DNA of 64,000 nucleotides. Origin: an uncultured Ruminococcus sp. (GTDB lineage: Bacteria > Bacillota > Clostridia > Oscillospirales > Acutalibacteraceae). Shown here in pieces: positions 6,239 to 57,128 of the stretch (the first letter of the stretch is position 1; every line of letters begins with the position of its first letter). The translations under genes and the position numbers were made by a program. The notes under the pieces are model-generated. The model saw only the letters and a program-made list of their open reading frames with translations, ran no database searches and had not been told where the DNA came from. The stretch is from NCBI GenBank assembly GCA_902799245.1, contig CADBZY010000007.1, positions 22,367 to 86,366 of the forward strand. The letters run 5' to 3'.

Positions 6239-6254
6239 TGTTTCACGTGAAACA
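6239..6254. promoter_or_regulatory. parS centromere site
   Basis: Perfect 16-bp palindrome TGTTTCACGTGAAACA, matching the Firmicutes parS consensus TGTTNCACGTGAAACA. Confidence 0.8.
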
Positions 6255-7017: not shown

Positions 7018-8910
7018 TTATTTCTGATGATTGCTTTTTGCAAGCCAGATCAGCAGAACCGAAATGTCCGCAGGACTCACTCCTGATATTCTGGAAGCCT
7101 GTCCGATGCTGGCCGGACGAATTTTACTTAATTTTTCGATAGCTTCGAGCCTTAATCCTGTAATAGCATTATAATCAATATCAAAGGGAAGCGTTTTTTC
7201 TTCCAATCGATGTGCTTCGTTAATCATGGCCTGTTGACGGCTGATATATCCTTCGTATTTGATTTCTATTTCTACCTGCTCTAAAATATAATCCGGCAAT
7301 TCCGGCCTAGTGCTGTCTATCGGCGTCAAGACCTTATAATTTAATTCGGGACGCTTCAACAATTCAACAAGTCTCACGGGATTGTTAATCGCTGATGTTT
7401 CACGTGAAACAAGAATGTCATTGACTCCCTTTGAACAGGGAATGGTGGTATTCCGAACTCTTTTCATTTCAGCACGCTTTAATTCCTGTCTATACAAAAA
7501 CGCAGCGTATTTTTCATCCGAAATTAAACCAATTTCGTGTCCGATTGGCATCAATCGCTCATCCGCATTATCCTGCCGGAGAATCAGCCGATATTCCGAC
7601 CGGGAAGTCATCATTCTGTAAGGATCAGAGACGCCTTTTGTAACAAGATCATCAATTAGCGTGCCGATATAACTTCCGGAACGTTCCAAAATCAGCGGTT
7701 TGCGCCCTTTAACAGACAATGCTGCATTAATGCCGGCAACAATACCCTGTGCCGCAGCCTCTTCATATCCTGAACTGCCATTAAACTGTCCTGCTCCATA
7801 CAATCCCGCATAGTCCTTGAATTCCAATGTCGGATACAATGCAAGCGGGTCAATACAGTCGTATTCAATCGCATATGCCGTGCGCATAATTTTAACGTTT
7901 TCAAGGCCGGGAATCGACTTATATAGAGCAATCTGAACATCTTCCGGCAGAGAAGAAGAGGCACCCTGCAAATACATTTCTTCCGTATCCAGACCGCAAG
8001 GCTCAATAAATAGCTGATGACGCTCTTTTTCCGAGAATCGGACAATCTTATCTTCTATACTGGGGCAGTAACGAGGCCCGATTCCATCTATTTTACCACT
8101 GTAAAGAGGAGAACGATGAATATTATCAAGGATAATCTGCTTTGTAGTCTGATTGGTCCAGGTGACATGACATACCGCCTGGTTGACCAGCGGAAAATCA
8201 GGCTTTTCCATCGTGTCATAAGAAAAAGGTGTAATGTCATTGTCACCTTCCTGTACCTCCAAACCGGAGAAGTCGATCGAACGTTTATGAATACGCGCCG
8301 GTGTTCCGGTCTTGAATCTTCGGCAGGGCAAACCAAGTGCACGGAGGCATTTTCCGAGAGCAGTAGCGGCAAACATACCGTCTGGGCCTCCTTCGTAACT
8401 GACATCGCCGACGTAAATCTTTCCTCCGAGATAAGTTCCGGTGGAAATGATAACACATTTTGATTGATAAACGGCTCCCATTTTGGTAACAAGGCTCCAG
8501 CGATAAGGTTCATCGGAAGGTCTTATTTCTACAATTTCCGCCTGTTTGAGGTCAAGACCTTCCTGTGTTTCCAACGCTTTTTTGATTCTTGCGGAATACT
8601 TTCTGCGGTCGATCTGTGCGCGTAAGCTGTGCACAGCAGGGCCCTTTCCCCTATTCAGCATTCTGCTTTGAATAAATGTATCGTCGGCGGATCTACCCAT
8701 TTCGCCGCCAAGTGCATCCACCTCGCGTACCAGATGCCCTTTTGCGGTTCCGCCAATAGAAGGATTACATGGCAGATTACCGACGGAATCCATATTGATT
8801 GTAAAAATAATGGTACTACAGCCTAACCTTGCGCTGGCCAGAGCTGCTTCTGTTCCGGCATGTCCCGCGCCAATAACTGCTACATCATATTTTCCGGCAT
8901 TAAATTCCAT
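7018..8910 (-). CDS. mnmG: tRNA uridine 5-carboxymethylaminomethyl modification enzyme MnmG (GidA)
   Basis: FAD motif YDVAVIGAGHAGTEAALA; 630 aa with full-length similarity. Confidence 0.92.
   Translation of the reverse strand: MEFNAGKYDVAVIGAGHAGTEAALASARLGCSTIIFTINMDSVGNLPCNPSIGGTAKGHLVREVDALGGEMGRSADDTFIQSRMLNRGKGPAVHSLRAQIDRRKYSARIKKALETQEGLDLKQAEIVEIRPSDEPYRWSLVTKMGAVYQSKCVIISTGTYLGGKIYVGDVSYEGGPDGMFAATALGKCLRALGLPCRRFKTGTPARIHKRSIDFSGLEVQEGDNDITPFSYDTMEKPDFPLVNQAVCHVTWTNQTTKQIILDNIHRSPLYSGKIDGIGPRYCPSIEDKIVRFSEKERHQLFIEPCGLDTEEMYLQGASSSLPEDVQIALYKSIPGLENVKIMRTAYAIEYDCIDPLALYPTLEFKDYAGLYGAGQFNGSSGYEEAAAQGIVAGINAALSVKGRKPLILERSGSYIGTLIDDLVTKGVSDPYRMMTSRSEYRLILRQDNADERLMPIGHEIGLISDEKYAAFLYRQELKRAEMKRVRNTTIPCSKGVNDILVSRETSAINNPVRLVELLKRPELNYKVLTPIDSTRPELPDYILEQVEIEIKYEGYISRQQAMINEAHRLEEKTLPFDIDYNAITGLRLEAIEKLSKIRPASIGQASRISGVSPADISVLLIWLAKSNHQK
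7396..7411. promoter_or_regulatory. parS centromere site (inside the mnmG coding sequence)
   Basis: Perfect TGTTTCACGTGAAACA. Confidence 0.8.
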
Positions 8911-10298: not shown

Positions 10299-10414
10299 AC
10301 TTTCATCCCTTTCGATACGTATTACCTTCCTACTATTATATCATATAATTCTGCAATTGCAATTGATTTATAAAAATAATATGACTTATCAGCATCCAAT
10401 TTAATGTTTCACAT

Positions 10415-10430
10415 GAAACATCTGCTTTAA
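10415..10430. promoter_or_regulatory. parS-like site (1 mismatch)
   Basis: TGTTTCACATGAAACA. Confidence 0.55.
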
Positions 10431-10441
10431 CCACTTAATAA

Positions 10442-10457
10442 AGTTTCACGTGAAACA
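10442..10457. promoter_or_regulatory. parS site (first base A)
   Basis: AGTTTCACGTGAAACA. Confidence 0.7.
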
Positions 10458-15738: not shown

Positions 15739-16047
15739 GGTGGAAAACAAGTCAGCGCCCTTTGATTAACGGCGCGGTTATTAAACCTGATATTCAACAA
15801 TCAACGTGGAAAGCTGTGGAAGAAAGTTGATTGTTAATGGATGTGCAAAACATTTCCCACCTGTTTCCATCCGGATTCAACAAGTTAAAAAATCCGGCTG
15901 CTGATGTATTTTCGGGAACCAATGCCATTTTCCACCATTTCAACCCCCCCTACTGCTGCTACTGTCCTTATCTTATAATTATTATTATATTTATATTTCC
16001 AATATGACTCCGCCGGACGAAAAATGACACGCCCGACGTTTTCCACA
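15739..16047. promoter_or_regulatory. oriC part 2: DnaA-box variants plus an AT-rich stretch that may be the unwinding element
   Basis: GGTGGAAAA (15739), CGTGGAAAG (15805), TGTGGAAGA (15815), TTTCCCACC (15853), TTTTCCACC (15928) and TTTTCCACA (16039). AT-rich run TCTTATAATTATTATTATATTTATATTT at about 15961-16000. Confidence 0.55.
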
Positions 16048-16175
16048 CGATCGGTTGAAAATCATCTGTCCGTCCAAACCACAAAAACGGAAGTTTTTAC
16101 AAACTCACACTTGTATTCACTTGCAGAATCATCTATAATAAAAGGTACGAAAAAAACGAAAGGACACGAATAACC

Positions 16176-22538: not shown

Positions 22539-22576
22539 TGGTTATCCCCTCGTACTGATTTCACGATAAGGTTGTT

Positions 22577-22600
22577 GCAACAGGAAACAGGAAACCGAAC
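22577..22600 (+). repeat. weak tandem heptamer (AACAGGA x2, then degenerate) after the gyrB stop
   Basis: GCAACAGGAAACAGGAAACCGAAC. Confidence 0.3.
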
Positions 22601-22623
22601 ATTCAACAGCCGCTTAAAAACAA

Positions 22624-22898
22624 TTCCACATCCAATCATTCCCACCAATCGGAAGTTTTTGACGGCTCAGCGTGGAGAATTCCGCAAAACCTGTGGAAAA
22701 CCCTGTGGAAAAGGTTGATAACTCACTGTAATATCGAAAATGACAGCTGCTTTTATTCCAAAGAGTAATTTAAAAATTTGATATTACTTAAGGTTTAAAC
22801 AATTTCCACAGAGTTTTCCACAATCGTATGTTGAATGAAAGTGGATTAAAGGGGAAAGTCTTCCGGCTATTCAAAATCAGGTGGAAAGATGTGGTAAT
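22624..22898. promoter_or_regulatory. third DnaA-box-like cluster, in the gyrB-gyrA intergenic region
   Basis: TGTGGAAAA x2 (22692, 22704), TTTCCACA (22803), TTTTCCACA (22814), AGTGGATTA (22840), GGTGGAAAG (22880) and TGTGGTAAT (22890). Confidence 0.45.
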
Positions 22899-22968
22899 CT
22901 CGTCAGATTATTACAATGAGTATCTTTGACAGTAAGAGAAGTTTTAAACAAGGGGTTTTATCATTACG

Positions 22969-23142
22969 CTGGCTGTTATGGTGCTGGCCGCTCTTGGCCT
23001 GGTAATTCTCGTCGGACTGTCAAAGCATTACCTTCTGGTGCTGCACCTCTATATTCCTCCATCTGCCGCGAAAAATGACGGAGAGTTTGCTGAATGGGAA
23101 AATATTTTGAATGAAATAGTTAATGAATATTCCGATAAGTAA
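22969..23142 (+). CDS. possible small membrane protein (57 aa)
   Basis: ATG ORF MVLAALGLVILVGLSKHYLL...; weak and distant ribosome-binding site; below the track size cutoff. Confidence 0.2.
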   Translation: MAVMVLAALGLVILVGLSKHYLLVLHLYIPPSAAKNDGEFAEWENILNEIVNEYSDK

Positions 23143-23184
23143 TAATTATAACGAAAATTACAAATTATAAAGGAGACTCTTCCT

Positions 23185-23748: not shown

Positions 23749-26253
23749 ATGGAATATGAAGGTCATGAGAATCAAAAAATCATAGAGGTTGACATTAACC
23801 ACGAGATGAAGGATTCCTTTCTCGCTTACTCGATGTCGGTCATCGTGCAGAGAGCGCTGCCCGACGTGCGCGACGGCCTGAAGCCGGTGCACAGGCGTAT
23901 TCTGTACACCATGTTCGAGGACGGACTCTATCCCGAACGCGCCTACAAGAAGTGCGCCACCACGGTCGGTGCCGTGCTGGGTCGTTATCATCCTCACGGC
24001 GATGCTTCCGTGTATGACGCTTTGGTGCGTCTGGCACAGGATTTCTCCATGCGATACATGCTGGTGGACGGACACGGCAACTTCGGTTCTGTGGACGGCG
24101 ACCCGCCTGCCGCTTACCGTTATACCGAAGCCAAGATGAGCAAGATCTCCATGGAAATGCTCACCGACATAGACAAGGAAACCGTAGATTTCACCAACAA
24201 CTTCGACGACTCGCACCAGGAGCCGACGGTGCTGCCGTCACGTTATCCGAACCTGCTTGTCAACGGCTCGACCGGTATCGCCGTCGGTATGGCGACCAAT
24301 ATCGCGCCGCACAATCTGAAGGAAACGATTGACGCGGTTTGTCTGCTGCTCAAAAATCCGGACGCGACGCTCGACGAGCTGATGGAACATATTCAGGGAC
24401 CCGACTTCCCGACAGGCGGCATCATCATGGGACGCGCCGGCATCCGCGCGGCCTACGCCACCGGACGAGGCAAGATCACCGTCCGCGCCAAGGCGGAAAT
24501 AGTGGAACGTCCCAACGGACGCTACCAGATCGTTGTCACGGAGCTGCCTTACCAGGTCAACAAAGCCCGACTGATCGAGAGCATCAGCGACCTTGTCAAG
24601 GAAAAAAGGCTGGAAGGCATCAGCAATTGCGACGACCATTCCGACCGCGAGGGTATGCGGATCACCATCGATGTCAAGCGCGACGCTTCGCCGAATGTGG
24701 TGCTGAATAACCTCTTTAAGAATACACAGATGCAGATCACCTTCGGCGCGATTCACCTTGCCATTGTGGACGGCGTGCCGAGAACCCTCACATTAAAGCA
24801 GATGCTGGAATACTACATCAAGCACCAGCTCGAAGTGATTCTGCGCCGCACGATTTATGACCTTAAAAAGGCAAAGGAACGCGCTCATATATTAGAAGCG
24901 CTGAAAGTCGCCCTTGATTTTATTGATGAAGTCATCGCGATACTGCGTTCTTCCAAGAATATCCCCGAAGGCAAGCAGCGACTCATGGATCGCTTCGGAT
25001 TCGATGAGGTACAGGCGCAGGCCATCGTGCAGATGCGTCTGGCACAGCTCACCGGCATGGAAAAGGAAAAGCTGGAAGCCGAGCTGAAAGCACTGCTGGA
25101 AAAAATCGAGGACTGCAACGACATCATCGCGCGCGAGGAACGCCGCCGCGACATCATTATGGAGGAATCGCAGGAGATAGCCCGCAAATTCGGCGACGAA
25201 CGCAGAACGCAGATAGAAACCATTTCCGGCGAAATGGATATTGAAGACCTCATCAAGGAAGAAGACTGCGTGATCACCTTTACCGCGTTCGGCTATGTCA
25301 AGCGCCAGAAGCTCGACACCTATCAGACCCAGCACAGAGGCGGCCGAGGCGTCAGCGGCATGGCGCGACGGGAAGAGGATGTGCCGACCGAGATGTTTAT
25401 CACGTCCACGCACGATTACGTCATGTTCTTCTCCGACCGCGGAAGGGTCTACAGGCTCAAAGGCTACGAGATTCCGGAGGGTTCCCGTTCGTCCAAGGGC
25501 ATCAATATCGTCAATCTGCTCCCGCTGGAGGGCGACGAAAAGATCACCGAAATGATCCGTGTACAGAAGCAGTATGAGCATGAGATGTACCTCGTCATGG
25601 TGACAAAGAACGGCCTCATCAAGCGCACGGCGCTGAGCGAATTCGGCAATATCCGCAAGAAGGGACTGATTGCCCTGAGCTTGCGCGACGACGATTCCCT
25701 TGTCTGGACGAGGCTGACCAACGGCAGCAATGAACTGCTTGTCGCCACCAAGGGAGGCTATTCCATCCGCTTCAATGAAAACGACGTGCGCGCGATGGGA
25801 CGCGGCGCGGCAGGCGTTCACGCCATCCGGCTGCGCGAAGGCGACGAAGTCATCGGCATGTCCACGCTGCGCGAAGGCGGCAGAGTGCTGACCGTCAGTG
25901 AAACCGGCTACGGCAGACTGACGCCGATTTCCGACTACCGTCTGCAAAGCCGCGGCGGAATGGGAATCAAGAATTACCGCAGCGAGAACGGCAATGTTGC
26001 CGCGATTCGTGTGGTTGACAATGACGACGACGTGATCATTATCAACAGCTCCGGCGTGATTATCCGCATTGCCGTCAGCGAGATCAGAGAATGTGCGAGG
26101 CCGAGTAAGGGCGTTCGCGTGATGAAGATCGAGGACGGCGGCAAGGTTGTGGCGCTGGCGAGAGTCAAACACGAGGAAGGCGAAGAAACCGACGCGGTGG
26201 ACAATACCGTGGAGGACGAACCGGCGGAAGAAGAAGAGGCAGGTAGCAGGTAG
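23749..26253 (+). CDS. gyrA: DNA gyrase subunit A
   Basis: Active-site tyrosine region AAMRYTEA, a QRDR-like segment and beta-pinwheel repeats. Acidic tail. The stop lies inside a heptamer repeat. Confidence 0.96.
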
Positions 26254-26277
26254 AAGGTAGTAGGTTGAAGGTTGAAG
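26241..26277 (+). repeat. tandem heptamers AGGTAGC-AGGTAGA-AGGTAGT-AGGTTGA-AGGTTGA spanning the gyrA stop
   Basis: Read directly from the sequence. Confidence 0.8.
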
Positions 26278-26289
26278 CATAGCGCAGCG

Positions 26290-26570
26290 CGTAACTAGCG
26301 AGTCTTTTTCCCAGGCGAGCGTGGGGTCCAGGGCAATGTCATCAACTTAAGGGGATTATGAAGGATGTGCCTTGCACCGGGGGTGCTCCCCCAGTCAGCC
26401 ATGCCAACAAGTTGGCGGGCTGACAGCCCCCTCAGAGAGGGAGCCGATAAAATTGCCTTCCTCTTTGAGGAAGGTGGCACGAAGTGCCGGTAGGAGCGCT
26501 CCCGGCGCAGGCGAACGCAGATAAAGGCTCCTTCAACGAGAGAAGCACAAACGAGTAAAACGCATAAACC
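26290..26570. ncRNA. GC-rich, hairpin-dense non-coding region (candidate structured RNA or long 3'UTR), unknown class
   Basis: Multiple stable hairpins (GGGGTGCTCCCC; CAGCCATGCCAACAAGTTGGCGGGCTG; CCTTCCTCTTTGAGGAAGG). No credible ORF. Lies between convergent genes. Confidence 0.25.
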
Positions 26571-28843: not shown

Positions 28844-29461
28844 ATGAAAGATTGGTTTATGACAGATCCTTTGCGTTCGACGCTGCTTTGTGTGGCCGTG
28901 CCGGCTACGGTCATTATGATATTGCAGACCGTGATGATTTTTATCGGAATGGCGGGACATTCCGATGTGGATATGCCGGACGACAACGGCATTGACGGTG
29001 TATTCGGCAACGATTCGCCTGACGCTCCCGATGTGCATCTCGGCGACTCGGGACTCCGTATCTTTACGGTGCGCGGAATGGTTGCGTTTTTCGCGGTCGG
29101 CGGCTGGGCAGGGCTTTCCGCCCTCTCTCTCTGCGGAAGTACCGCGGCTGCAATCATTACGGCATTCATCGCGGGAACACTCGCGCTTCTGCTTGTGGCG
29201 TGGTTTTTCAAATGGGCGGCTTCACTGAATGAAAACGGCACGCTTCAAATGGAGAGCGCGGTCGGCAAGGTCGGCGAGGTCTACATAACGGTTCCGCCGG
29301 AAATGAACGGAACCGGCAAGGTGAATATCATCATTCAGGGCAGGCTGACCGAAGCCGAAGCCATGACCGACAGCGAACGTCCCCTGAAATACGGCGAACC
29401 CGTGGAAGTCGTCGGGATGGCAGTCGGGAACGTTCTGAAAGTCAGACCCGTATCAAAATAG
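28844..29461 (+). CDS. NfeD-family membrane protein (OB-fold C-terminus)
   Basis: Transmembrane helices plus a C-terminal OB-fold domain GKVGEVYITVPP...GKVNIIIQGRL. Confidence 0.7.
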   Translation: MKDWFMTDPLRSTLLCVAVPATVIMILQTVMIFIGMAGHSDVDMPDDNGIDGVFGNDSPDAPDVHLGDSGLRIFTVRGMVAFFAVGGWAGLSALSLCGSTAAAIITAFIAGTLALLLVAWFFKWAASLNENGTLQMESAVGKVGEVYITVPPEMNGTGKVNIIIQGRLTEAEAMTDSERPLKYGEPVEVVGMAVGNVLKVRPVSK

Positions 29462-29520
29462 CGCTCACATTCGTTCGCTTAGTGAATGGTGAATAGTGAA
29501 TAACGTCGGAAGCGCTTCGC
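29462..29520 (+). repeat. post-stop element: GCGCTCACATTCGTTCGCTT followed by the (A/G)GTGAAT x3 heptamer and a GC palindrome
   Basis: Similar (about 80% by eye) to 58221..58273 on the minus strand. Confidence 0.7.
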
Positions 29521-29555
29521 GCTTGGAATCTATTATAATGAAAGAAGAATATCCC

Positions 29556-29867
29556 ATGTCTGATGAAAAGAAAATCGATAATTTGGACGAAGATGTAAAC
29601 AAGGAAGAAAAAGAGGACGAAAGCCACACGGGTCTTGCTGTCGGCATGTGCTTAGGCATTGCCTTAGGGCTCTCACTCGGGCAGTTTATTTACCACACTC
29701 CGTCGATTGGCATGTGTATGGGTCTTGGTATCGGTCTGTGCTTTGGCACAGCGTATGACGCACATAAGAATAATCAGAAGGCAGCCAAAGCCGCGGAGAA
29801 GCCGAAGGAAGATACAACCGAAGAAACATCAGAGCAGCAGGAAACGAAATCCGAAAGCGGTGAGTAA
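29556..29867 (+). CDS. small glycine-zipper membrane protein, hypothetical
   Basis: GxxxG-rich transmembrane region. The start is ambiguous (29538 or 29556); the upstream part of the track ORF overlaps the repeat element. Confidence 0.45.
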   Translation: MSDEKKIDNLDEDVNKEEKEDESHTGLAVGMCLGIALGLSLGQFIYHTPSIGMCMGLGIGLCFGTAYDAHKNNQKAAKAAEKPKEDTTEETSEQQETKSESGE

Positions 29868-36801: not shown

Positions 36802-36822
36802 AGGTTGAAGGTTGAAGGTTCA
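36802..36822 (+). repeat. tandem heptamers AGGTTGA-AGGTTGA-AGGTTCA downstream of guaB
   Basis: Same unit as after gyrA. Confidence 0.7.
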
Positions 36823-37007
36823 AAAGAATGAGTTGAAAACTGTGTTGAAAATGTTGAAAAATACTGTTTCTTTGGGTACATTCATTGGTAAAGAATGGGA
36901 ATGAAGCGCAGAATGAACAATTTACTTTAAAATAGAATGGATTTTTACAGTAACGCTATTGACAATAAACAGTACATGATGTAAAATAATGACAGTACAA
37001 ATTAATA

Positions 37008-37110
37008 TGACCCGCAGGGGTGCCGCAAGATATTTGGCTGAGACAGCGCATTGATGCGCTGAACCCTTATACCTGATACGGATAATGCCGTCGTAGGAAG
37101 TTATTTCAAG
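37008..37110 (+). promoter_or_regulatory. TPP (THI-box) riboswitch
   Basis: GGGGUGCC, GGCUGAGA, AACCC and ACCUGAUACGGAUAAUGCCGUCGUAGGAAG match the TPP aptamer consensus. Confidence 0.88.
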
Positions 37111-37164
37111 TGTGTTTTGTATTGTGCCTTGAACCGCATCGCTCAATTGTCACTTTTCGAATCA

Positions 37165-45993: not shown

Positions 45994-47763
45994 ATGAGAA
46001 GACACCAATTGAGCGGATTGGAACATGTGCATATGATGAGACATGTTCCGAGAAGCTATGATATGACCCGCACTCATATAATGCACAAGAGCGTTAATAA
46101 GCACGTCGATGTTGTGCTGAGATGTTCCCCGAAGAACTGGAAGAAGAAGAAAGTGACTGTCAATGTGGTCAGGGGCGAAAAGAAAAACGACGCCGCCCGC
46201 ATCGCAGCCAACGCCAAAAAGGGCTATGTGGCCGTACGCAAGACGGTCAACGATCAGTTTGAAGCCGATCGCAAGATAGCCGCAGCCGCTTTTGAGACAA
46301 AGTACGGCACACGTTCCGCGGGTTCTGATGCTCTGATACACGATATGAAGAGCCAGATTTCCACAATGGCCCAAAAGAGTGCCGATTATATCGACAGCCA
46401 GCTGACAGAGAAGCCGGAATATCCCTACGGATCTCCCATGAATCCTACGGTGGAATCCAAGCCCGTCGTGGAGAAAGAGCCCCTTATCAGCGCGGAAACC
46501 GAGGATATTCTGAAAAAGGGCGGCTACAAGCTTCCCAAATCCAAGCCGGAGGGAAGCCCGTATGCTGCGGACTACCTCATGCACGCTTCCAATGAGGAAT
46601 TCCATAACCTGATGGATTCTCTGGAAAAGTCGCTCGACGAAGCCTGCAAAAAGTATGCGGCGCAGCCCGATGAACCGGCGGCAAAGACCGAGACAGAAAC
46701 AGAGCCGACGCACGAAACCGAGAGCGGCAAGACCGAATTTGGCTATGAAGGGTATAACGGATTTGGCGGTTACGGCGGCGGATATAATATGCCAGGCGAC
46801 ATCAGCCTCAGTGTGACAAAGAAGCAGGAAATTAAGGCTGAGGAAAATGAAGTAAAAGAAGCAAAATTAGCCATAGAAGAAGAGGAAGAACAGGAGTTCA
46901 AGCCCGCTCTGACGTTTACGGACGGCGGCGAGCATTATATTCCTGACAGCGGACGGCATTATCTCCGCGAAGACGATCTTTTTGACAGAGAGCTTAACCG
47001 TCCTGGTGACACCTATGTGCCGCCTGCTAATTTCTTTGAGGATGAGGAAATCGCTCCCTCGGGTGACAGTGATGACAGCGGCGAAGCATATGTGCCGCTG
47101 CCGGACGCAATACCCGCGCATCCGTCCATGCCGAAACCCCAGAATATCTTCTACACTGAGGAGGACGACCAGCCGATCGGCCAGCAGGAAGGCTATCCGA
47201 GAGAGGACTACGTTCAGCAACAGGTATTTTTCACGACACAGCCGGACGATGAATCATCTTCCAATCTTTACAATCCTCCGCAGGAGGAAGAGGAATTTGC
47301 CGAGCCGACGCTGTATCACGATATGACCAATGCGCACGGTCATGTCGGAGAAGAAAGCGACTACGAACCCCCGATGGTATTCCCCGATAACGACAACGAC
47401 GGTGATGCTCCTGAAGTACCGGCACCGGATGATGACGAAGATCTTGCGGCTCCTATGATCTTCCCGGACGATGATGAAGAACTTCCGCCTCCTATGATCT
47501 TCCCGGACGACGATGAGGGCTACAGTCCCGCTCCCGTTTCGCCCGACCGGAATGAATATTATGATGACGGTAACGGCGATCAGGGTGTGGTGAATCGTTC
47601 CGGACAGACGCTGTTCAGCCGCACCGGCGACCAGATCAAAAAGGTAATCGGTATCATCCCCGGTTCCGGCGACAGTAATATCAGCTCAAAGAACAATTCT
47701 TCACAGATTCGCAATCACAATGTAGAGATTACCTATACCGATCGGGACGGTAATAATATATAA
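45994..47763 (+). CDS. acidic low-complexity protein with PxM(I/V)FPDDDE repeats, hypothetical
   Basis: AAGGAGGGG ribosome-binding site; Asp/Glu/Pro-rich with three near-identical repeats. Confidence 0.6.
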   Translation: MRRHQLSGLEHVHMMRHVPRSYDMTRTHIMHKSVNKHVDVVLRCSPKNWKKKKVTVNVVRGEKKNDAARIAANAKKGYVAVRKTVNDQFEADRKIAAAAFETKYGTRSAGSDALIHDMKSQISTMAQKSADYIDSQLTEKPEYPYGSPMNPTVESKPVVEKEPLISAETEDILKKGGYKLPKSKPEGSPYAADYLMHASNEEFHNLMDSLEKSLDEACKKYAAQPDEPAAKTETETEPTHETESGKTEFGYEGYNGFGGYGGGYNMPGDISLSVTKKQEIKAEENEVKEAKLAIEEEEEQEFKPALTFTDGGEHYIPDSGRHYLREDDLFDRELNRPGDTYVPPANFFEDEEIAPSGDSDDSGEAYVPLPDAIPAHPSMPKPQNIFYTEEDDQPIGQQEGYPREDYVQQQVFFTTQPDDESSSNLYNPPQEEEEFAEPTLYHDMTNAHGHVGEESDYEPPMVFPDNDNDGDAPEVPAPDDDEDLAAPMIFPDDDEELPPPMIFPDDDEGYSPAPVSPDRNEYYDDGNGDQGVVNRSGQTLFSRTGDQIKKVIGIIPGSGDSNISSKNNSSQIRNHNVEITYTDRDGNNI

Positions 47764-51310: not shown

Positions 51311-51316
51311 TTACGT

Positions 51317-51337
51317 AGCCAAAAGCCAAAAGCCAAA
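51317..51337 (+). repeat. tandem heptamers AGCCAAA x3 6 nt after the stop
   Basis: Read directly from the sequence. Confidence 0.75.
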
Positions 51338-51348
51338 AGAATAAAAGA

Positions 51349-53943: not shown

Positions 53944-54059
<116 letters not shown>

Positions 54060-54064
54060 ATCAA

Positions 54065-56827: not shown

Positions 56828-57099
56828 ATTTTTTCTCCCTTCTTGTAATGCAGTTGGCGGATTGGTAATCGTGGAAATTGGTTGAGATAGGTGTGGTGGC
56901 GCCTTTTATGAAGCGAGGTTGTTCTTCGGTCGGGACAGGGGAAAATTGCCGGTATTCGCCTGTCCCTTTCGCGTGTTCGGGTGCGTCTTGCTCGCTCAGC
57001 CAAAGGCTTCGCTCGTGAAGGCTTTGCCCTCACGCAGGGCTCCAGACCCCTGCACACCGCGCTCGCTAATTATGTGCTATGCGTACTTTTTCTTCATCT

Positions 57100-57128
57100 G
57101 CTACCTTCTACCTTCTACCTTCTACCTT
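57100..57128 (-). repeat. tandem heptamers AGGTAGA x3 plus AGGTAGC immediately after the stop of the upstream M42 gene
   Basis: Plus-strand sequence CTACCTTCTACCTTCTACCTTCTACCTT. Confidence 0.8.

Follow-up and report, generated by a model that had tools for sequence, protein, structure and literature searches.

What are two closely similar GC-rich sequences doing directly behind the stop codons of two unrelated genes? The question arises in a 64,000-nucleotide stretch of DNA from an uncultured Ruminococcus sp., referred to below as the window, in which a sequence-only reading had picked out the pair, together with two weaker motifs, and had taken them to represent a small dispersed family of non-coding elements. 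Three roles had been suggested for the family, those of a miniature mobile element, a 3'UTR regulatory or stability module and a protein-binding site. We have followed up these suggestions by examining the two elements, here denoted A and B, their relatives in the window and in other genomes, and the genes beside which they occur.

Element A lies on the plus strand behind a gene for a 205-aa membrane protein, whose stop codon TAG (29459-29461) contributes its final G as the first base of the element. The core of A (29461-29503) opens with a 22-nt module, GCGCTCACATTCGTTCGCTTAG (29461-29482), containing two CGCTCRC-like half sites at a spacing of about 10 nt, and it runs on into the heptamer array TAGTGAA TGGTGAA TAGTGAA TAA (29480-29503), which is devoid of C and closed by stop triplets in every frame. 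The hexamer CGTCGG then separates the array from a GC hairpin, AAGCGC-TTC-GCGCTT (29510-29524), after which GGAATCTATTATA leads up to a small Gly-zipper gene with its ATG at 29538. Element B is located on the minus strand and starts 2 nt past the TAA (58276-58274) of a 178-aa gene. Its core (58271-58229) also begins with a module, GCGCTCGCGTTCGCTCGCTAAG (58271-58250), which is followed by six heptamer units, AAGTGAA TAGTGAA TAGAGAA TAAATAA TAGATAA TAA (58252-58215), by TTTCGG and by a GC hairpin, AGCGC-CCGCA-GCGCT (58208-58194). Behind the hairpin lie the tail GAAATGAAT and then the ribosome-binding site (RBS) and start codon (ATG, 58157) of an M42 peptidase gene, the first of two. Thus, in both elements C-free, purine-rich heptamers are succeeded by a GC hairpin of 5-6 bp and a GAAT-rich tail.

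The sequence-only reading had placed both sequences correctly, and it was also right that they begin at stop codons, with A overlapping its TAG by one base. The two cores align without gaps at 37 of 43 positions (86%; E=4e-8 by blastn within the window), while outside these 43 nt A and B share an architecture, with the hairpin in the same place, but not a sequence. Both match the pattern GCGCTC[AG]C[AG]TTCG[CT]TCGCT[AT]AG exactly, and the motif RGTGAATRGTGAAT occurs nowhere else in the window. Moreover, a profile HMM constructed from 76 copies from other genomes, with the window left out of training, recovered B (E=1.4e-8) and A (E=5.5e-8) and nothing else at E<1; the third-best match in the window was a half-module at 57060-57070 (E=1.2).

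An exact-pattern scan for GCGCTCNCNTTCGNTCGCTNAG, covering one genome per species, produced 119 matches in 104 stretches. About 70 of these derive from some 15 metagenome-assembled genomes (MAGs) of rumen and gut Clostridia, where they are spread over many contigs per genome; the source MAGs include RUG10756, RUG328, RUG14799, RUG10784, RGIG2899 and SRR11784291_bin.54. The proposal of a dispersed non-coding family is thereby borne out and the further copies that were to be looked for are present, in numbers that are lower bounds because the scan used an exact pattern and a single genome for each species. The nearest relatives of the window among the scanned records are about 80-87% identical at the DNA level, its own genome not being one of them. 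Nearly all of the approximately 70 Clostridia copies continue into C-free heptamers (AGAATAG, ATAATAG, AGTGAAT and similar units, numbering from 1 to about 12), then a GC hairpin and then GAATATA. A fuzzy search allowing up to 3 mismatches gave 107 matches in 839 kb of related loci as against none in shuffled copies. The family architecture is that of the 22-nt module, which is by far the most conserved part, joined to a variable heptamer array and a 5-6 bp GC hairpin. Copies from the same genome are more alike than copies from different genomes, a pattern that either lineage-internal amplification or homogenisation would be expected to produce.

We conclude that A and B are members of a lineage-restricted, modular, non-coding family of intergenic repeats which, as far as could be found, has not been described previously. 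No Rfam family matched A, B, C or G (the latter two being long relatives described below) at the gathering score, and nothing relevant appeared at E<=5. The GC module was also found in four IMG/VR contigs (L167, L169, L170 and L171), as the centre of palindromes of AGGTAGA and CCTCCTAC, and these occurrences were rejected as evidence for a phage origin. The same arrangement, with the module at the centre of AGGTAGA and CCTCCTAC arms, is present at positions 1040-1180 of L054, a Christensenella-like MAG, and the AGGTAGA unit of all five palindromes is also the unit of elements G and C. Structured RNAs were seen elsewhere in the window, namely a TPP riboswitch at 37006-37116 (63 bits) and a lone 5S rRNA gene at 53944-54060 (95 bits).

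The position of the copies relative to genes is unusual. Twenty-nine of them (about 40%) start 0-2 nt past the stop of a co-oriented ORF with 80 codons or more, or overlap it by 1 nt, and by a second gene-calling method 14 of the 28 copies with a co-oriented upstream gene lie no more than 2 nt from its stop. Relative to the upstream gene, 28 copies are in the same orientation and 23 in the opposite one, and many adjoin the RBS of a divergent gene. The heptamer units carry TAA, TAG or TGA and, since seven is not a multiple of three, three successive units close all three reading frames; the same all-frame stop has been pointed out before for TAACTGA repeats (PMC4679880). Together with the GC module, such closed arrays set flush with stop codons are among the traits that make the family unusual, a further one being that its arms are common to certain gene cassettes that are considered below.

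The two weaker motifs of the sequence-only reading, one near 57061 and a GCGAGCG behind gyrA, proved to be true relatives, because each falls in a longer element that holds the reverse complement of the GC module, truncated in one case and split in the other. Element G (26239-26568, plus strand) follows gyrA. Its heptamers, AGGTAGN/AGGTTGA (26241-26277; AGGTAGA x5 according to TRF), cross the gyrA stop codon and supply it (26251-26253), and after them come a reverse-complement hairpin, a reverse-complement module split by a 12-nt insert (26295-26322, with the GCGAGCG motifs) and a series of GC-rich hairpins about 240 nt long. Element C (56900-57128, minus strand, with an approximate inner boundary) lies between the two M42 genes and contains an array of AAGGTAG x4 (57128-57098; CTACCTT x4 on the plus strand by TRF), a truncated module (57070-57059) that reads GCGCTCGCTAAT on the plus strand, and a series of GC-rich hairpins that runs to about GGCGAATACCGG (56961-56950). 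When C is read on the minus strand, G and C align over 67 nt with 75% identity (E=7.5e-6). The order of their parts differs from that in A and B: after the stop come heptamers rich in purines or a run rich in A, next the hairpin and the module, both as reverse complements, and finally 150-250 nt of GC-rich hairpins. In both, the element takes the place of the last codons of the upstream gene and provides the stop codon; the C terminus of the M42 protein, for example, reads ...SGGIK* in the window and ...SGGICQ* in the relatives.

The series of GC-rich hairpins in the long elements also recurs as a dispersed repeat in its own right (L049, L072, L110, L116, L068 and L077), of which the five full copies recovered are too few for covariation analysis. 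The orthologous long copies at L049 and L116 differ solely in the presence or absence of the module, so that modules are evidently shuffled.

Other tandem arrays in the window lack the GC module. AGGTTGA x2.7 (36802-36823) lies just past a terminator and AGCCAAA x3.3 (51316-51339) starts 6 nt past a stop codon; in addition, a 39-nt repeat of 2.4 copies with 88% matches (47425-47516) lies within a coding region. Four parS-like palindromes, TGTTTCACGTGAAACA, were also observed in the window, at 6239-6254, 7396-7411, 10405-10420 and 10442-10457, two of them exact and two with one mismatch, against 0.18 expected by chance, and they fit a replication-origin region containing dnaA, dnaN, recF, gyrB and gyrA. 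Clusters of DnaA-box-like TTTCCACA/TGTGGAAA at 22539-23151 and 15801-16058, in the long intergenic regions flanking the dnaA-gyrB block, are probably segments of oriC.

Whether such elements are mobile can be judged from orthologous loci, which were retrieved via neighbouring proteins. A, B, G and C are each missing at the same site in several close relatives, and related genomes clearly gain and lose copies of the family. A is present in L013, with a different array length, and in L014, it is absent from L003-L008, and in L010-L012 it is reduced to TAGTGAG and a hairpin with another stem, GCCC-TTC-GGGC. The Gly-zipper membrane-protein gene 3' of A (29538-29867) is also missing from L003-L008, where the upstream gene overlaps a Zn-ribbon gene directly, and a joint gain, or a joint loss, of A and this gene is possible. 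L015, whose M42 protein is 94% identical, lacks B and has a spacer of 32 nt where that of the window measures 116 nt; L017-L019 lack B too, and L111 (RGIG2899) carries it at the orthologous position, with two heptamers instead of six and a longer hairpin. C is likewise present in L111; L015-L019 lack it and have spacers of 24-69 nt, the window one of about 300 nt. G is missing from L010 and L013, in which the gyrA stop leads straight into the terminator. Conversely, L029 and L099 carry a copy one base past the stop of gyrB, at a site that is empty in the window. Persistence at orthologous sites was seen for B and L111, A and L013, and L029 and L099, in genomes with about 80-85% identical DNA. 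No target-site duplication was recognised in comparisons of filled and empty sites, the empty sites being too diverged for base-exact boundaries.

Some members of the family are considerably larger than A and B. A complementary right arm is present in about a quarter of the copies (14 of 52), and in the best of them (L075, L093 and L101) the GC module is inverted as well. These two-armed copies are palindromes of about 200 nt, L075 reaching -126 kcal/mol over 300 nt, and their centre, made up of a hairpin, an AT-rich spacer and a second hairpin, is found in either orientation. Neither A (z = -0.5) nor B (z = 0.9) has a complementary right arm, and they are half elements. As in miniature inverted-repeat transposable elements (MITEs), the copies are dispersed, small and free of ORFs. 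The terminal inverted repeats of MITEs are lacking in A and B, and a parent element with a transposase sharing their ends was not seen in about 66 loci; nor did an all-versus-all blastp of ORFs of 150 aa or longer from same-genome loci reveal a transposase or any other multi-copy ORF near the copies in these loci, with their approximately 0.5 Mb of flanking DNA. By the measure used for short tandemly repeated repetitive (STRR) sequences, TRF detected at least three tandem 7-nt units that are non-coding and differ in copy number between relatives.

A connection to a protein family emerged from the tandem multiplication of the module. Among the related loci searched, arrays of several modules were seen in two independent places only, L083 (also L079 and L080) and L106. 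At L083 the polA stop is followed by six forward units of GCGCTTCGCTGAGTTGA, an ORF of 120 aa, ten reverse-complement units of 26 nt and the RBS of the next gene, and at L106 a 27-nt array abuts the typA/bipA stop about 130 nt from an ORF of 119 aa. Both ORFs belong to PF05635, the '23S rRNA intervening sequence protein' family (E=5e-42 for L083 and E=8e-32 for L106), although the two proteins are only 27% identical; that of L083 also gives a bAvd match below the Pfam cut-off. Within the related loci searched (the window and L003-L124) there are no PF05635 genes besides the ORFs at these places; hmmsearch of the six-frame translation showed no PF05635 ORF or remnant in the window, and a profile search showed none beside the single copies. 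A metagenome scan for tandem module arrays yielded one match, in a contig of 67% GC, that is attributable to chance.

Arrays of heptamers bracket PF05635 genes more generally. In rumen contigs such genes lie within operons, between oppF and a gene for an FAD protein and between those for V-ATPase B and D, and they are bracketed by heptamers which start at the upstream stop, for example ...gtaTAGTTGTTAGTTGTTAG...ATG[ORF]TAActaccaactactaactaccaa; the downstream units complement the upstream units and the number of units varies between samples. In IMG/VR, most of 15 independent contigs have inverted arrays round a PF05635 gene, likewise beginning at the upstream stop, with units of TAGGGTG, TAGGGAG, TAGTCTG, TAGTGAn or AACGTTG, or of 8-13 nt. 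These arrays concentrate at the ends of the PF05635 ORF and the complementarity of the flanks exceeds z>3 in 11 of 18 loci. Plasmids with a PF05635 gene bracketed by inverted heptamer arrays, again from the upstream stop onwards, include those of Anabaena sp. 90 (at cas6/cas4), Nostoc edaphicum (at nrdB/nrdA) and Riemerella; in Calothrix PCC 7716 the PF05635 gene was found without the bracketing pattern. The same kinds of arm, inverted tandem arrays of heptamers or of GC modules, are thus shown to bracket genes of the PF05635 four-helix-bundle family. In three IMG/VR contigs (L146, L147 and L148, at about 1450-1860) the PF05635 cassette, heptamer arms included, seems to split a larger ORF. The sequences to either side are homologous among these contigs and read like a single gene, which would make the cassette an intervening sequence within a gene that codes for protein.

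There are precedents for parts of this arrangement. In Coxiella, the intervening sequence bears an ORF of this family beside GACAGAT heptamers that vary in number, and it has a terminal stem of 28 bp which RNase III cleaves (PMC4990558). An earlier survey reported PF05635 genes inserted in cas operons and made no mention of repeats (PMC3936711). We found no description in the open-access literature of repeat arms as a general feature of the PF05635 family.

The explanation that we favour, and consider probable, is that A and B are one-armed copies, lacking an ORF, of a clade-confined family which constitutes a MITE- or STRR-like counterpart of the PF05635 cassettes, and that they are most likely inert. 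Among the three roles first suggested, that of a miniature mobile element fits best because of the filled and empty sites, the genome-specific subfamilies and the two-armed palindromes of about 200 nt; a 3'UTR or stability role ranks lower and a protein-binding site is the weakest. The analysis adds to the initial proposal that the elements are modular and often half a palindrome, that they carry stops in all frames and that their modules bracket PF05635 genes.

The course of events may be envisaged as follows. The family would have originated as an ORF-less relative of cassettes of the intervening-sequence type, and its copies would insert at gene boundaries, very often directly 3' of a stop codon, with some insertions swapping out the last codons and providing a stop of their own. 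The copies would be tolerated because they halt ribosomes from the neighbouring gene in any frame and do not disturb the downstream RBS; with both outward-facing strands closed in every frame, the arrays could allow such elements to reside at or in gene ends without giving rise to fusion proteins. Subsequently, the number of heptamers would drift via replication slippage. Two-armed copies are predicted to fold into long RNA duplexes, like the 23S rRNA intervening sequences cut by RNase III, and may be processed as double-stranded RNA. Processing of this kind is inapplicable to A and B since they lack a second arm, and they would form the small hairpin alone and persist as inert passengers between cistrons. 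A and B probably have no function at all, although there is a smaller chance that they contribute to the stability or processing of mRNA.

Some observations weigh against this explanation, among them the failure to find a transposase near the copies or to recognise a target duplication, and the missing second arm of A and B. The link to PF05635 consists of two independent loci with module arrays and a general pattern of heptamer arms, and it could reflect a shared preference for intercistronic spacers instead of common descent; among the long simple repeats of bacteria, heptamers are stated to be the most common (Mrazek 2007, cited in PMC4679880). Moreover, the persistence at orthologous sites and the compensatory changes in the hairpin, described below, could indicate selection for a function and not inertness.

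A more far-reaching proposal, which we put forward tentatively and regard as having somewhat less than an even chance of being correct, is that PF05635 genes are the cargo of widespread, undescribed mobile cassettes. Short tandem repeats, mostly heptamers with a TAG, would form inverted arrays at their two ends; the cassettes would insert into rRNA, within genes and at stop codons, halting translation from both sides, and the STRR-type heptamers, together with A and B, would be their ORF-less offspring or footprints. If this were true, the orphan family PF05635 and the heptamer repeats of bacteria would gain a common and testable origin, and, should the link hold, the role of the '23S rRNA intervening sequence protein' and the origin of the STRR-type repeats would become one testable question. 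There is also a practical side, in that the repeats break metagenome assemblies, many PF05635 contigs being shorter than 2 kb, and that they can be mistaken for regulatory RNAs or CRISPR-like arrays.

Among the alternatives, the one that survives best, which we nevertheless consider unlikely, assigns the elements a selected role in mRNA, with the intercistronic or 3'UTR hairpin and the unstructured purine-rich array shielding the upstream cistron from 3' exonucleases or setting a processing site. Part of the evidence for it comes from the hairpin. A GC-rich stem of 5-6 pairs lies 3' of the array in most of 54 parsed copies, usually as AGCGC/GCGCT, with the variants AGCCC/GGGCT, AGTGC/GCACT, AACGCC/GGCGTT and AAGGCGC/GCGCCTT. 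When 31 distinct hairpins were aligned, 94.8% of cells were paired, changes on both sides were seen in 3 of 5 pairs, and the covariation score was reached by none of 500 shuffles. Such compensatory changes imply that the stem is under constraint, as RNA or as single-stranded DNA, and their maintenance of the hairpin speaks for an mRNA role. The retention at orthologous sites across species and the many copies lying in sense orientation exactly past stop codons point the same way, and a similar action has been suggested for the hairpin of the cyanobacterial STRR heptamers between hupS and hupL (PMC2670836).

Against an mRNA role, the same operons occur without the element in close relatives, the orientation is nearly even and many copies lie upstream of divergent genes. 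Nor is there the signature of an intrinsic terminator; a scan found none at A or B, and the hairpin is not one because the stem is followed not by a run of U but by tails of GGAATC... and GAAATG..., respectively. The fold energy is also at the level of shuffled sequences, since single-sequence folding of the whole element gave z = 0.16 for A and -0.83 for B, and the search of Rfam was negative. A scan for sigma-70 promoters gave no match at A or B. Two more specific mechanisms were considered and rejected. One was a switch, in which the GCGCTC of the module would pair with GAGCGC before the hairpin; copies with the AGCCC/GGGCT stem lose this pairing and keep the local stem. The other was binding of the UAG repeats by a HutP- or TRAP-type protein, which nothing supports.

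It appears improbable that the 22-nt module is a binding site for a protein on DNA or RNA, with two CGCTCGC half sites one helical turn apart and with the heptamers and hairpin as incidental additions. The module is the most conserved part by far, and arrays of 26-27 nt units stand beside genes of a basic, nucleic-acid-associated family (PF05635, bAvd-like), which both speak for such a site. However, its occurrence after the stops of unrelated housekeeping genes shows no regulon logic, the module comes and goes in the orthologous elements L049 and L116 and is truncated or split in C and G, and no binding protein is known.

We give still less credence to elements of the REP/BIME type, or to hairpin elements derived from IS200/IS605 (PATEs), moved by a tyrosine HUH transposase encoded elsewhere. 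The short GC hairpins with AT-rich spacers, and the one-armed copies with neither long terminal inverted repeats nor a recognised target duplication, would suit such an origin, as would the hairpin-AT-hairpin centre, which occurs in both orientations (L093 versus CAMHAV copies) in a BIME-like manner. Nevertheless, no such transposase is encoded in the approximately 0.5 Mb of flanking DNA, no conserved GTAG-type guide lies beside the hairpin, the stem has just 5-6 bp, and the heptamer arrays and 22-nt module are without counterpart in REP or PATE elements. Finally, chance or low-complexity likeness at this base composition, to which the short GCGC/TCGC motifs of the module and the approximately 35 matches of the exact-pattern scan in unrelated GC-rich genomes, roughly the number estimated for chance and without heptamers after them, might have pointed, is ruled out by the E-value of 4e-8 in the window, the 107 matches versus none in shuffled sequence, the independent HMM that finds A and B only, and the same three-part architecture in dozens of copies.

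As one-armed, ORF-less copies of a modular repeat family, A and B can be compared with several known systems. Among these are the STRR and other heptamer arrays, such as TAACTGA of Beggiatoaceae, cyanobacteria and Bacteroidetes, which also consist of tandem 7-nt units, lie in intergenic or intercistronic spacers and vary in copy number. Inverted arrays of the cyanobacterial STRR can form hairpins (PMC2670836), and forward units of the TAACTGA type provide all-frame stops and may overlap the upstream stop codon (PMC4679880). In the family described here, by contrast, the array is coupled to a 22-nt GC module and a GC hairpin, the hosts are Clostridia, and many arrays follow stop codons whereas those of the STRR type precede start codons. 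A link between STRR and PF05635 is not reported in the STRR and heptamer literature examined.

The intervening sequences of 23S rRNA with an S23p/PF05635 ORF, of the Coxiella, Leptospira and Salmonella type, share with the ORF-bearing relatives the protein family and a stem built from terminal inverted repeats, and in Coxiella also the tandem heptamers of variable number by the ORF (PMC4990558). A and B differ from them in having neither an ORF nor a second arm and in their location, which is between protein-coding genes and outside helices 25 and 45 of 23S rRNA.

In its modular construction the family resembles the pneumococcal BOX elements (boxA-boxB(n)-boxC), which are small, non-coding and intergenic, with a middle part of variable number and conserved ends that can pair, and which carry no transposase of their own. 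Set side by side by description, the two have in common the modularity and the variable middle, but their sequences are unrelated, the middle unit measures 45 nt in BOX and 7 nt here, and the present family contains many half elements and has shown no target duplication in the comparisons made. The mycobacterial MIRUs are similar in their placement, being intercistronic within operons, with ends that abut or overlap the flanking stop and start codons, and variable in copy number. Their units of 46-101 bp may be translated, whereas those of the family to which A and B belong are 7 nt long and closed in all frames.
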